From the NCBI GenBank assembly GCA_016213945.1, contig JACQZF010000002.1, forward strand, positions 12,675-76,674: a stretch of 64,000 bases of DNA. The letters run 5' to 3'. The first letter of the stretch is position 1, and every line of letters begins with the position of its first letter. This document shows positions 24,001-42,000 of this stretch, piece by piece. Made by a program: the position numbers. This DNA comes from Nitrospirota bacterium (GTDB lineage Bacteria > Nitrospirota > Thermodesulfovibrionia > UBA6902).

Positions 24001-27000
24001 ACTCCATACTGTAATTCCCATTCGGCGCAGCCTGCCCGTTGGCCCCGTTCAGCGTTCCGCTGTAGTTGATCATCTGCGGGACGGTTACGGCGTGTGACGC
24101 CATAGCGGAAAGTATGACAACCACCGCTGTCAGTAAAATGATTTTGATTGACCTTGCTCTACTCATATTCATTTCCTCCTTTGCGTATGTGAAATTTTGG
24201 TAATTTATTTTTCTAAAAATCTCTCCTGTCCCTCTGAATAACACACCCCTGCACCCCTCTTGATAGAGGGGAATAAAAAAAGGACGTGCCGCAAGACACG
24301 CCCTTTTTAAAAAAATATTTTTCTGAATAACAGTTAAATTCTGTCTGTCTGTCTGTCTGTCTGTCTGTGCAAAATGCCTGCCATGAGAAATGCCCTTTCC
24401 CTAATCTTGCAGCATGTTAAAAACAGAATCGGAGAGGAGATAAAAAAGAAGAGAACCCAGCTTCCTCTCAAATTGGAATGATTAATTAAACAACAAAGTT
24501 CTTTGTTCTGTCAAGCAAATTCTTTATTTGCCAGATTGCGCAAATAATTATTATTTACCCGGCAATTAAATGCCTGAATGCTGTCATTCCGGCTTGTCCG
24601 GAATCTATATTTCAGAAGGACTCCCGACAAGCTGGAGTGACAATCATGGCGTAGGACACTCGCCTGATTATTGACAGCGAACCGGCAAAAGTTTAAGCTA
24701 TTTGAAATGTTTGAATTTTCATTTAAAAAGCTTTACTTGCTCAACTATTTCCTTGGGGCGCTTATTCTAATTGCAAGCCTCCTGCTCGTCCGCAATATCG
24801 TCAGCACCACTCTTTCAAAGAAACAACCGCTCCCGGCGGCGGTTTCCGAAAGTAAAATGACCGGGCAAAAAGCCGCTAACAAAAAACCTCTTATGTATTA
24901 CTCGCCCATCCTTGAGAAAAACCCTTTTGGCCCGCCCATGACACTCAGCCCTATTGAGGTCTCCGAGGAAAATGCGGCCCAGCCCAGTCCTTTGTCAAAC
25001 CTCATCCTTGTCGGCACCGTGGTCGGCCCGAGGAATCTAAGCTATGCAATCTTTGAGGACAAGGTGCAATCTCCGGGCAAACAGGAGGTCTTCAAATACG
25101 GTACGGATGTTTTTAATTACGGCGCCTTAAGAAAAATAGAGAGGTCGTCAGTTGAAATAGAACAAAACTCGGTTATCAGTACAATTCATCTGCAGGATTT
25201 ACCGGCGGCTTCAGCGCAATCCCCGGAGCAGACTTCTGAGTCTCAGAGACAATCCTTTGCCAAGAAGGTCGGCGAAAAGGAATATATCCTTGACAGCCGC
25301 AAGGTCCAGCAATCTCTTGAGAATCCCGAAAAAATACTGACCGAGGCGAGGATGCTGCCAAACATCAAGGACGGCAAACAGTCAGGTTTCAAAATAAGTG
25401 AAATAGTGCCGGGGGGCATTTATCAAAGCCTTGGTTTAAAGAACGGCGATATATTATTAAGGATAAACGGCCTTGAGATCTCAAACGCCGAAGTCGCGAT
25501 GCAGGCAATGACGGCATTGAAGGGGATGAACAGTGTTAATCTTGATATAATCAGGAACGATCAAAACATGTCGATGAACTATCGTATCAAGTAGTTATTG
25601 ATTAACATTAAGATAAATTGTAAAATTCAAAGTGCAAAGCGAAGAACCCTGCGGCAGAGACTGCAGGGCGTCCATTATTTGAATGTTTATTTTTTTGGTG
25701 TCATTCCCGCAAGCCCCGAACAAGTCGGGACAGGCTCCGCGCGTCGGGAATCCTTCCGGAAATATTCCGGACAAGCCGGAATGACAGAAACTTGAACTGT
25801 GGCAGAGACCACATGATGTAATAATTATGAAAAAAACCGGTCACATGAACGTTGTTAAAACTTTATGTTTAATCTGTCTGCTTGTTTTTATCTTCTCGCT
25901 CACACCCGGACTTTCCTTTTCCGAAAACAGGAAGTCCGATGAGAACATAGCCTTTAATTTCGTAGATGTCGACATACCTACGATAATAAAATTCATCAGC
26001 GAGATAACAGGCAACAACTTCATCTTCGACGAGAAGGTCAAAGGAAAGATCACCATCATAGCCCCGGCAAAGCTTTCCATTGACGAATCCTTCTCGCTCT
26101 TTACTTCCGTATTGAGCCTGAAAGGCTACACCATAATCCCGGCCGGCCCCAAAACGTATAAGATCATCCTGGCTTCGCAGGCAAAAGAGGAAGGCCAGCT
26201 CTCTACAGATGAAAAAATCCCCGTTAATGAAGGGTACATCACGAAACTCATTCCGACCCAGAACATCAAGGCTGATGACGCTATACAGTTCCTTCGTCCC
26301 ATTGTTTCAAGAGACGGTCATGTCTCCGCCTTCGGCCCGGGCAATTTTCTGCTTGTAGTGGATTCAGCCCTGAACATGGAAAAAGTAATGTCCATTCTGA
26401 AATTGATCGACCTGCCCTCGGCCCAGGAAGAAACCGCAAAGGTAAATGTCTATTTTCTCGAAAACGCCGATGCCGTGACTCTTGCAAAGGTGCTCGAAGG
26501 AATATTGAAAAACCTCCAGACAGCCTATAAAGCTTCACAGAGAGACAAACAGCGGGCTGCCCCTGATTCGGTCCCTGTATTAAGCGTAACGCCCGACAAA
26601 ACAACCAACTCTCTTGTCATCGTCGCGCCCCCTTCCGAGTATGAAAATATCGCGCACGTCATAAAGACCCTTGACAGGAGAAGGAAACAGGTATACGTTG
26701 AGGCCATGATAGTTGAGGCGTCAATCGATAAACTCAGAGAGCTCGGATCAAAATGGAGGGGCACAGTAAGCCACAACGGCGAACCGGTTGTAATCGGCGG
26801 CTTTGGAAATTTAAGTTCAAGTTCCTTACTTTCAATCATTAACGGTTTAACGGGCTTTACAGCAGGCGGGATGGGCAATTTCATTGACATTCCCGTTACT
26901 AATCTTTCTTCAAGCGGCACTGCCACAACGCAGACCCTTACGGCCCCGGGATTTGCGGCCCTTTTCAGCCTGAACGACTTTAAGGATGCAGTAAACGTCC

Positions 27001-39000: not shown

Positions 39001-42000
39001 GAGCTGACCTTTCCCTTCTCCGACAAGATCAAGATCAGGGACACGATCTCTTTTGAGCTTGAAGACCTCCTGCTTGGCAGCGTCAATGATTATTCCATCG
39101 ACCACCTTGTCACGGAATACCTTGACAGCGGGTGCAGGGTGCTGGCTGTCTGCATTGAAAAGACAAGGCTCAGAGAGATCATCAATACCTTTTCATCAGC
39201 GGGCCTTGAGCCGAAAATCATCACCTCTGTTGACCTGCGCCTTTCAGGTGGCAACAGTGAAAGGCTTATCGAAGGACTGACTCATGACAACGAGGCAAGG
39301 ACAAAAGCCGCCGGGGAAGAAATTGAAAATCCGTCAGTCAATCTCAGGCGGGATGAACTGGCTTATACAGGAGACCTTGAGCGGATGAAGAAAAGTCTCC
39401 GCCTGTCAGCTTCGCTGCTTCTGGTATTGCTGCTGATACTCGGCGCCTTTATGTCGCTCAAATATGCGGCAGGCAAAAAAGAAAACAAACGGCTCAACGC
39501 GGAGCTTGCGGGCACATTCCAGAGCGTGTTCCCGGAAGACAAAAAGATCATTGATGCCGTAAGGCAGTTCAAGGGCAACCTCAATTTACTAAGGGATAAG
39601 AAAGCCGTGCTCGGCGGCGTCCCCGTGCTGGACATGCTGAACAACATCGCAAAGCTCAAGAGCAGGAACATTGTGCTTAATGACTTTAACGCGGACGGGA
39701 AGAACCTGATCATAAAAGGGACGGCCGCAACCTTTGAAGAAGTTGACGCCTTTAAAAACAACCTCGCCTCCCCGTTTGACGGCGTGAAGGTTTTAAATTC
39801 GGACGCTACCGCCGACAAGAAGATCAACTTCACCATAATCATGCAGGAGAAGACTGTATGAAAACATTCAGGCAGATAATGTTGTTCTTCGACAGGACCA
39901 CATTGGCGATTGCTGTTCTTATCGCTGCGGCGATAATTTTCATCATCACGATGTCCGTCATCTCCACGAAGACCGGGGGAGAGAACTCTGCACTGAAAAC
40001 ACAGTTGGCCGAGATCAAGTCCCTCGCTGAAGGGGCGCTTGAATTAAAGGGCGTGGTTGAAGCAAAAGAGAAAAAGACCGGCTTGAACAAGGCTGCCGCA
40101 GTAGTGCCGACTCTGGAGCAAATCCTCAAGTCCCTCGGCATGAAAGCAACTGTCATCAGGCCATCCGCCAAAAATAAGGTGAAAGAATTTGCTGAAGAAG
40201 ACGCGGAGCTTGAGATTCAGAACATCGATCTCAACAGTATTGTTAACCTCCTCTTCAAGATCGACAACTCGCCTGTGCCGATGAAGATCAAAAACACCTC
40301 GCTGAAAACAACCTTTGAAAACCCTGATAAATTTATCCTGAAACTGACCGTGTCGCTAATAAGCAAGGGATGAACATCTTCCGTAAGATTTTATATATCC
40401 TCTTAGCCGTCCCGGTACTCATCATCCTCATCTGGCTTTTTGCCGTACCTGAGGACCTGATACAGGAGAAGATCGAAGGCGCCATATCAAACGCGGGACA
40501 GGGCAATATCAGCGCGTCGTTGACGGGTTTCAGGAAAGGCTTTTTTATTTCCGTGTACGCCGACAGCCTCGAAATAAAAATAGACAACACTTCCGCCCTG
40601 ACGATCACAGACCTTACAGGCTATCTGAATCCGGGAGATTTAATTAAAGCGCGGTTCATCTTTTCTGTTAAAGGGAATATCGGCACCGGCCGGTTGAACG
40701 GTCTGCTGAAATATCCCGCGGATGCTGAAATACAAATTGACAGGTCGGAGCTGAGTGCCGTCTCATATCTATCGAGTCTCGGTGTCAAGGGCGATGGGCA
40801 TCTTTCAGGCAATATCAGCCTGAAGGACAACAGCGCAAAGATAACATTTCAGGTCCCTGATTTAGCTGTTCAGGAATCCGCGATCATGGTCCCGTTTGTA
40901 GACACGTTTCACAAGGCCCAGGGTGTTTTGTCCGTAACAGGCAATGTTGTAAAATTTGAATCAGTAAGTCTCGAAGGGGAAAAAGGCTACGCGAGATTAA
41001 AAGGTGATATTACAAACGGAGTGAAAAATCTTAGCCTGGAGCTGATGCCTGCCATGGACAGACTCAATTCACTGGAATCAATGCTGATCGTAAAATACCA
41101 GGTCTCGCCGGGCTATTATGTGGTCCCGGTCAAGTAATTACATTATCAAATACAAATCTATTCAATTTTACCAGGTTCAGCTATAATAAATTTCAAACAA
41201 TGGATAAAAAACCTCAACATATAATCAAAGGGGGATTGAAGCCTTCAGAAGAATGGTTCATACAGGCGGAATATGATTTAAAGACGGCATCTGCAATGTT
41301 TAAAGCAGGCAGGTACATTTATACTGTTTTTATGTGCCACCTGTCTATTGAAAAAGCGCTCAAAGGTCTATACACTCAAAATCGTAACAGTATCCCGCCT
41401 AAAATCCATAACCTGATTTTTCTGGTTAATGAGATAAAGTTATCTCTGCCGGACAACTTAAAAGAATTCGTTACTCAATTAAACAAAGTCAGTGTGCCGA
41501 CGCGCTATCCTGATGAACTGCAAGTTCTGTTAAAAGAGTATAGTAAACAACAGGCAGCAGGGATTCTCAAAGATACAAAGGAACTTTTGAAATGCCTAAA
41601 AGAAAAGTTAAAGAAGCAATAACATATCTGAAAGATTTACTGCTTGAAAAAGGACTTAACATTAACAAGATCATTATCTTCGGGTCTTACGCAAAAGGGA
41701 ATTACAGAAAAGACAGCGACATTGATTTAGTTGTGATCTCAACAGACTTCAGCGGGAAAGGAATATTTGAGAAGGCAAAAATGTTAGGAGATGTTGAGTG
41801 GAAATTGATAAAAAAATATTTAGTCCCTTTTGATATCATCACCATGTCGCCGGAAGAGTTTGAAGAAGGCGTGTCTCCTGTCTCTCAATTTGCTAAAGAC
41901 GGAAAGATAGTATATAGCAAATGATTCATACGGATTTTTTCCTTTCTTAAATAAAGTCTATCCATAAACTGACTTTTTTATTTTCGTCATGCCCGAAGTC

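Follow-up and report, generated by a model that had tools for sequence, protein, structure and literature searches.

We analyzed a 64,000-nucleotide (nt) stretch of a Nitrospirota (Thermodesulfovibrionia) genome (assembly GCA_016213945.1, contig JACQZF010000002.1, positions 12,675 to 76,674; hereafter the window), in which the genes of a type II secretion system (T2SS), gspC to gspN, are interrupted between gspF and gspG. The arrangement is best explained by one functional-looking T2SS organized in two transcription units. The gspF|gspG junction would have opened in the ancestor of a sub-clade, gspG would have acquired a promoter of its own and the genes now lying in between would be passengers. 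We give this reading a probability of roughly 0.78. It is carried by the distribution of split and contiguous clusters among related genomes, and by a conserved promoter-like motif that precedes gspG in interrupted loci and never occurs in contiguous ones.

We built the gene map of the window from a listing of open reading frames (ORFs) and from Pfam and NCBIfam scans (Table 1). Both blocks lie on the plus strand where the original prediction had placed them, gspC-D-E-F at 24707-31028 and gspG-H-I-J-K-L-M-N at 35867-41137, and the interruption of about 4.8 kb by four minus-strand genes (HMGL-like aldolase, eda-like aldolase, DEAD-box helicase and corA) is borne out as well. GspD, E, G, K and L score above the curated equivalog cutoffs for T2SSs and GspC, F and J above those of Pfam; both blocks belong to one T2SS. 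The second block could instead represent a separate type IV pilus (T4P) or another type IV filament system, given that the N-methyl motif is common to pseudopilins and pilins and that GspH and GspI score under the T2SS cutoffs. The probability of this is close to nil: GspG, GspK and GspL pass T2SS equivalog cutoffs, GspK is specific to T2SSs, the window has no pilM, pilN, pilP or pilT genes, with the PilM/N/O/P alignment complex, PilT and a true pilin all missing, and most relatives fuse the two blocks in canonical T2SS order. T4P membership was accordingly rejected, since the comparative gene order effectively refutes it.

Relatives were collected by scanning a genome collection with a GspF alignment, which returned 80 loci with 10-kb flanks, and the proteins of the window were located in related loci by tblastn. 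The related-locus set comprises 83 loci (related loci carry labels such as L001), and 81 relatives entered the comparison of the four-gene content. The best GspF matches come from metagenome-assembled genomes (MAGs) assigned to 'Nitrospirae/Thermodesulfovibrionia' (JACRMS010000017, 98% identity; JACRLN010000014, 81%). We binned the relatives by GspF identity to the window and counted only determinable genomes. Below 60% identity (n = 38), gspF and gspG are separated by at most 350 nt in 34 genomes and by 351-800 nt in 4, with no gene-interrupted junction and no genome without gspG within at least 5 kb. Between 60% and 70% (n = 12), the corresponding numbers are 8, 1, 0 and 3, and at 71% or more (n = 24) they become 5, 0, 10 and 9. 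The close clade is thus split at gspF|gspG in 19 of its 24 determinable genomes, while the complete 3.17-Mb genome CP070632 (L003/L030) carries gspCDEFGHIJKLMN in one run. According to the original prediction, the interruption would be less notable if related genomes conserved the identical arrangement. The split at the same junction is indeed shared by the close clade, but the exact four-gene content recurs in none of the 81 relatives. Because the split is typical of the clade, it is less notable by that measure.

The content of the junction varies widely between these genomes. It consists of corA alone in L014, L004 and L002 (L002 additionally has a DUF1361 gene) and of the DEAD helicase alone in L006, L028 and L021. 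In L015, L019 and L010, 5.3-5.8 kb are taken up by a small Cys-rich ORF, a pair of large lipoproteins and then the helicase; a two-component pair and metabolic genes occur in L023, with a same-strand glycosyltransferase upstream of gspG; and L036 has a PIN gene and a 1304-aa lipase-like TSP3 protein. The junction spans 5-7 kb in L015, L019, L023 and L036. In L001, whose GspF is 98% identical to that of the window, we found a toxin-antitoxin pair, GmrSD and housekeeping genes, and no gspG in 10 kb. Helicase orthologues (77-83% identity) lie at the junction of L006, L010, L015, L019, L021, L027 and L028, and corA orthologues (81-83% identity) directly upstream of gspG in L002, L004 and L014; the window is the only locus with helicase and corA together. 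The two aldolases have no counterpart in any of the 83 related loci. Scans of the window against Rfam (gathering threshold) and for tRNA genes returned no match, and neither a riboswitch nor a tRNA integration site accounts for the junction.

The leader that precedes the helicase of the window (34477-34594) has its homologue upstream of the DEAD gene in L006/L028, where it adjoins the gspG promoter. The window therefore looks like either a 'helicase-promoter-gspG' state with corA placed in between, or an ancestral 'helicase-corA' state from which the relatives lost one gene, two alternatives between which a single-gene tree cannot choose. The gaps of 9 and 43 nt suggest that the helicase and both aldolases probably form one operon. 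The four genes had been described as housekeeping genes, which for both aldolases is an assumption only, because they do not reach the NCBIfam cutoffs. We consider the helicase, corA and the two aldolases as putative passengers with respect to secretion.

The original prediction held that the second block needs its own promoter within the divergent region 35716-35866. Phylogenetic footprinting returned a candidate in this region, at 35772-35801, which ends 65 nt before the GTG start of gspG. When the window and the 83 loci were searched on both strands with tolerance for mismatches, each positive locus gave one match, always on the plus strand and before gspG. The motif is carried by 12 loci with a visible gspG upstream region (the window, L002/L005, L004, L006, L010, L014, L015, L019, L021, L023, L027 and L028), all of them interrupted between gspF and gspG, whatever gene lies upstream. 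It is missing from the interrupted L036 and was never found in contiguous clusters. In the alignment, both hexamers and the flanking 'GTATTT...AAG' are nearly invariant and the spacer is fixed in length and variable in sequence, which is the pattern expected of a promoter. A minus-strand pair (TTGATA/TTGCTA-17-TAAAAT) facing corA or the helicase is kept in about 10 of 12 loci and is degenerate in L006 and L028. From this conservation, the region upstream of gspG is best described as a predicted compact bidirectional promoter. A promoter-like element also precedes gspC, with TTGACA and TAA(G/T)CT invariant in 15 of 15 aligned relatives, the start codon 5-10 nt away and no Shine-Dalgarno sequence. 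Because its -10 hexamer is so close to a start codon that lacks a Shine-Dalgarno sequence, the gspC mRNA is probably leaderless.

These data suggest a scenario in which the first unit (gspC-D-E-F) would be driven by the TTGACA-17-TAAGCT promoter and the second (gspG-N) by the TTGATA-18-TAGACT promoter, whose AT-rich core would be common with a mirror-image corA promoter. Regarding the order of events, we infer that the ancestral cluster was contiguous, that gspF|gspG opened in the ancestor of the sub-clade and that gspG gained its own promoter. With both halves independent of read-through, the junction would tolerate gain, loss and rearrangement of genes, and the insertions appear to be located at the boundaries of transcription units and not within them. 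The split would be old within the clade and stabilised by the dedicated gspG promoter. The prepilins would have to be processed in trans by a peptidase whose gene lies at another site, presumably a PilD that is shared.

Several observations weigh against this scenario. In a single-protein neighbour-joining tree, contiguous genomes are interspersed and promoter-bearing genomes are not cleanly monophyletic. One origin of the split is uncertain because the tree interleaves the contiguous genomes, and its resolution is too poor to favour either one origin or several. The activity of the two promoters is deduced from consensus and conservation, and an automated promoter scan missed the gspC element, whose -10 matches the consensus at 3 of 6 positions. 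No intrinsic terminator was found after gspF or gspN. The junctions between gspF and the HMGL-like gene and between the helicase leader and corA have no counterpart in other assemblies. Finally, no Peptidase_A24 match to GspO/PilD was obtained from any real ORF of 120 aa or more within the 64-kb window, which was the only sequence covered.

The strongest alternative is that the inserted genes are coupled to secretion. Signals such as Mg2+ or temperature would then act through the shared bidirectional core on the pseudopilin operon and, jointly, on corA or (in relatives) the cold-shock-type helicase. The plus and minus promoter elements do interleave within 49 bp (35772-35820), the minus-strand pair persists in about 10 of the 12 loci, and the corA and DEAD helicase families recur beside gspG in 11 genomes. 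However, the partner gene varies between corA, helicase and, in L023, a glycosyltransferase on the same strand, the partner is missing in contiguous clusters and the minus-strand elements have degenerated in L006 and L028. We also know of no T2SS that needs CorA or a DEAD-box helicase. Overall, we consider such a coupling distinctly unlikely.

The split could also be a sign of decay, in which case the T2SS would be on its way to loss, with a broken operon, a missing gspO and repeats invading its spacers. As the original prediction had stated, the window has no prepilin peptidase gene; hairpins occupy the gspE-gspF, gspH-gspI and gspI-gspJ spacers; GspH carries Ala where Gly is expected at position -1 of its cleavage motif; and L001, in spite of its closely related GspF, has no gspG within reach. 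Against this, all 12 ORFs are full length and share 46-98% identity with orthologues across dozens of genomes, and both their order and the promoters are conserved. The relatives' contiguous clusters lack gspO too, as T2SS clusters commonly do when PilD also serves type IV pili (PMC6617341). These data make ongoing degeneration very unlikely.

The source of the window is a metagenome-assembled contig, and its junction between gspF and the HMGL-like gene is unique among the relatives examined, as would be the case if a chimeric contig had joined halves of the cluster with unrelated sequence. Nevertheless, the corA-promoter-gspG junction recurs in three independent assemblies and the adjacency of gspF and helicase in several others. 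GC content shows no shift along the region (0.45-0.50), and the outer frame formed by PNP, gspC to gspN and ribD is syntenic with the relatives. An assembly artefact is hence extremely improbable, and we rejected it on the reproduced junction, even GC and outer synteny. Within this frame, the PNP_UDP_1 gene adjoins gspC in most relatives (gaps of 47-200 nt) and lies 10 kb away in the window, and ribD, found 100-324 nt after gspN in six relatives, is 8.2 kb away. GspK of the window is 100% identical to that of an 80-kb contig labelled 'MAG: Nitrospirae bacterium' (P0121), besides which the protein database holds no GspK above 84% identity.

Table 1. Coordinates, strands and supporting evidence of features in and around the split T2SS cluster of the window.
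Feature	Position	Strand	Evidence or remark
Rhs segment, 10 kb	14676..24244	-	Rhs and fibre-like genes
gspC promoter-like element (predicted)	24671..24699	+	TTGACA, 17 nt, TAAGCT; ATG 7 nt past -10
gspC	24707..25594	+	HR domain and PDZ; Pfam T2SSC 39.4 bits (cutoff 27); NF041515 GspC_delta 147.4 (cutoff 150)
gspD, secretin	25827..28238	+	TIGR02517 475.7 bits (cutoff 351.35); Pfam N0, Secretin_N, Secretin
gspE, ATPase	28235..29761	+	TIGR02533 690.3 bits (cutoff 630.25); ATG at 28241 may be the start
Palindromic hairpin, gspE-gspF spacer	29762..29855	+	arms CAAAGGCACAAAG / CTTTGTGCCTTTG; -34.8 kcal/mol, z -7.7
gspF, platform protein, 390 aa	29856..31028	+	Pfam T2SSF, two repeats, 202.5 bits
HMGL-like aldolase (4-hydroxy-2-oxovalerate aldolase-like)	31130..32080	-	score under family cutoff
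KHG/KDPG (eda-like) aldolase	32124..32750	-	score under NCBIfam cutoff
DEAD-box RNA helicase (CshA/DeaD-like)	32760..34334	-	DEAD, Helicase_C and DbpA RNA-binding domains
corA, Mg2+/Co2+ transporter	34648..35715	-	TIGR00383 348.7 (cutoff 200.75)
Bidirectional promoter core (predicted)	35772..35820	both	plus strand, for gspG: TTGATA 35772-35777, 18 nt, TAGACT 35796-35801
Bidirectional promoter core (predicted), for corA	35820..35792	-	TTGATA 35820-35815, 17 nt, TAAAAT 35797-35792
gspG, major pseudopilin	35867..36310	+	TIGR01710 168 bits (cutoff 88.85); Pfam T2SSG, N_methyl; GTG start
gspH, minor pseudopilin	36303..36800	+	N-methyl motif; GspH/GspI-model matches sub-threshold; corrected start
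Hairpin repeat element copy 1, gspH-gspI spacer	36785..36873	+	about 90 nt, directly upstream of gspI
gspI, minor pseudopilin (MSSGFTLLE...)	36874..37206	+	N-methyl motif; GspH/GspI-model matches sub-threshold; corrected start
Hairpin repeat element copy 2, gspI-gspJ spacer	37207..37295	+	about 90 nt, directly upstream of gspJ
gspJ, minor pseudopilin (MSSGFTL...)	37296..37904	+	Pfam T2SSJ 31.3 bits (cutoff 28); corrected start
gspK, minor pseudopilin	37901..38764	+	NF037980 158.4 bits (cutoff 130)
gspL	38803..39861	+	TIGR01709 81 bits (cutoff 65)
gspM, 171 aa	39858..40373	+	predicted PilO/GspM fold; no sequence-family match; 'hypothetical protein' in public records
gspN, Leptospira-type	40370..41137	+	TIGR04411 49.6 bits (cutoff 50)

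Some components are identified by position or structure. The best NCBIfam match of GspF is TIGR02120 (376.7), under its equivalog cutoff of 424, and GspE scores 574.5 against the PilB model, under that model's cutoff of 675.65. The gspF start was corrected from 29748 to 29856, matching the 98%-identical P0001 (390 aa). The positions of GspH and GspI are conserved among relatives, and that of gspN is kept in 41 of them. The 171-aa ORF between gspL and gspN has Pfam T2SSM matches in 2 of its 31 orthologues, both weak, and its profile returned nothing significant among the sequences of the PDB. The AlphaFold model (41 homologues, predicted local distance difference test score 75.7) has a transmembrane helix, a long coiled-coil helix and a ferredoxin-like domain. 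With Foldseek, it matches PilO (2rjz, 5uvr, 3jc8; E-values 1.7e-5 to 6.6e-4) and the C-terminal domain of PulM (template modelling scores 0.64-0.78). Because of these matches, the predicted fold identifies the ORF as GspM.

The secretin GspD bears a C-terminal extension (27507-28238, residues 561-803) composed of a Fervidolysin_NPro-like domain (561-640), a Pro/Gln-rich linker and a SPOR domain (728-799). All 66 GspDs of the clade have the Fervidolysin_NPro-like domain after the secretin domain, and 17 of the 66, including that of the window, have the C-terminal SPOR domain after the linker. Among PDB sequences, the C-terminal region has only a marginal match, to the SPOR-like 1x60 (E-value 0.39). 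Among T2SS secretins, SPOR was known in Legionella LspD alone, at the N-terminus, according to a paper of 2022 (PMC9239104); here it is C-terminal and follows the additional NPro-like domain.

Large signal-peptide or lipoprotein genes occur at gspF|gspG or directly after gspN in several genomes: the 1304-aa TSP3 protein of L036, the two lipoproteins of L015/L019/L010, a multihaem cytochrome in L002 and a 1192-aa MopE/TSP3 protein in the window. One could imagine the gspF|gspG junction as a recurrent gene-capture site that gathers lineage-specific cargo beside a T2SS with a novel mode of attachment of its secretin to peptidoglycan (C-terminal NPro-like and SPOR domains, no pilotin), an idea that we put forward only as speculative and on balance unlikely.

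The window contains a further, orphan GspD-type secretin of 768 aa (1313-3619, minus strand; TIGR02517 466 bits, above the cutoff). It has a Pro/Gln-rich N-terminal extension of about 140 aa and lies 21 kb from the cluster, without further gsp genes as neighbours; next comes an IS200-like Y1 transposase gene (4529-5464). L007, L063 and L073 likewise have a distant second secretin, located 0.6-3.8 kb upstream of gspC.

Klebsiella pul, Vibrio eps and E. coli gsp are the canonical single-operon T2SSs. The window has the same components from C to N in the same order, and distant Thermodesulfovibrionia relatives keep the contiguous form. Unlike these systems, it is interrupted between gspF and gspG, contains neither gspO nor gspA/B/S and would be expressed from two predicted promoters. 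The best family matches of GspC and GspN are to the 'delta-type' T2SS (NF041515 GspC_delta, 147.4 bits) and to the Leptospira-type GspN (TIGR04411, 49.6 bits). Both scores fall just under the cutoffs, so that NCBI's criteria exclude this Nitrospirota lineage from membership and it is a divergent relative of those models. In the functional Xcp system of Pseudomonas aeruginosa, xcpPQ diverges from xcpR-Z, with two promoters in the shared intergenic region. There the break separates C-D from E-Z, and the two divergent units adjoin each other without any unrelated gene in between, whereas the break of the window falls between gspF and gspG and holds four.

The closest parallel to the split is in Legionella. 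Its T2SS genes are distributed over five loci, with lspG-K under their own promoter and transcribed independently of lspF, and pilD is encoded elsewhere, with pilBC (PMC6617341). Members of the L. micdadei clade have kept an insertion exactly between lspF and lspG that consists of tesA and a hypothetical gene; in the view of the authors, this insertion should leave pseudopilin transcription unaffected (PMC6617341). The Legionella and Nitrospirota systems have in common the lack of a single operon, foreign genes between F and G, a peptidase outside the cluster and a secretin with SPOR. They differ in that Legionella has five loci and no gspN, which the window possesses, and in that here almost every species has a junction content of its own and the inserted genes run against the direction of the gsp genes. 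A comparable independence of the second block is possible: the motif is restricted to interrupted loci, and the junction content is variable. A T2SS split between F and G is therefore already known from Legionella, and the window is a further instance of it from another phylum, in which the junction has seen more turnover. As a second independent lineage in which the cluster opens at this point, it supports the pseudopilin operon as a natural separate expression unit. T2SS detection rules that require co-localised genes would break the system of this Nitrospirota clade into parts or overlook it, and the two conserved promoter motifs can serve as anchors for metatranscriptome work on uncultured Thermodesulfovibrionia. 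The practical value is otherwise small and the understanding of T2SS unchanged.

The genes within each block had been described as tightly coupled. This holds in part, but spacers of 232 nt (gspC-gspD), 94 nt (gspE-gspF), 73 nt (gspH-gspI) and 89 nt (gspI-gspJ) depart from it. The long hairpin between gspE and gspF belongs to a family of near-heptamer repeats (CAAAGGCACAAAG / CTTTGTGCCTTTG), with a second copy at 55117-55200. Comparable heptamer-repeat palindromes precede gspG in many relatives, among them L006, L028, L041, L052, L062, L071 and L076. The elements upstream of gspI and gspJ are 88% identical to each other and form purine-arm/pyrimidine-arm hairpins, with no further exact copy in the window or the 83 related loci. 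The heads of the long gspI and gspJ ORFs are copies of these elements, which created false N-terminal extensions of 30 aa.

Rhs proteins and the neighbouring 1192-aa TSP3 protein had been proposed as possible substrates. The first proposal is not supported for the 2142-aa Rhs protein: because it has no N-terminal signal peptide, and the two closest relatives lack its whole segment (14676-24244) and have the PNP gene next to gspC, it is a poor candidate. It is a Tc-toxin-like BC protein and lacks credibility as a T2SS substrate. Its domains are SpvB, directly at the start, TcdB-mid, RHS, TSP3 and Laminin_G. The same segment encodes a 408-aa RHS-core protein, which has both a signal peptide and a poly-Lys/Asp tail, as well as an ORF of 174 aa and a fibre-like protein of 333 aa with an N-terminal domain of the Bdellovibrio MAT family and phage tail-collar matches. 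The 1192-aa protein (Big_5/MopE/TSP3 domains) fares better, as it has a signal peptide, although it sits in the non-conserved 8.2-kb insertion between gspN and ribD. Together with its exported neighbours (a lipoprotein and a PEP-CTERM-type protein), it is a possible T2SS cargo, and large exported proteins recur beside the gsp clusters of relatives.

The neighbours are a Gly/Ser-rich lipoprotein (47579-49105), located beside the MopE/TSP3 and PEP-CTERM-type proteins, and a 179-aa exported protein (46984-47523, minus strand) with a C-terminal PEP-CTERM-like sorting signal (..VAPEPVSSILFLVGGGTLAARRLLRKK). The 8.2-kb insertion opens directly after gspN with a HEPN and nucleotidyltransferase (MNT-type) toxin-antitoxin pair (41200-41924); in L001, a ParE/antitoxin pair stands directly after gspF. 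Intergenic inverted repeats resembling miniature inverted-repeat transposable elements (TGTCATKCCSG...CSGGMATGACA) were found at 6948-7001, 23156-23206, 24565-24650 and 41968-42034. They occur at both edges of the regions inserted beside the T2SS cluster, and similar repeats are present in L002, L047, L058 and L063.

A different palindromic element of about 80-90 nt (AATCCCCC..CCCCCTTT / AAAGGGGG..GGGGGATT) is present in two in-frame copies within unrelated housekeeping genes. The copy at 50175-50266 lies inside ribD (49419-50624) as a clean insertion of 24-29 aa (..PFLKGGIMNSPFEKGGCRGIF..), absent from five orthologues. The copy at 55608-55699 lies, in the same coding orientation, inside a larC-like Ni-insertion gene (55158-56423, minus strand) and encodes a similar peptide, ..PLFAKEGNIMSPSLKKGDAGGF... 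Partial copies of the AATCCCCC-type element were detected in 6-7 related loci, in several of them upstream of gspG. In-frame palindromic elements exist in Rickettsia, which the ribD and larC copies resemble, and these elements may be more novel than the split T2SS cluster itself.

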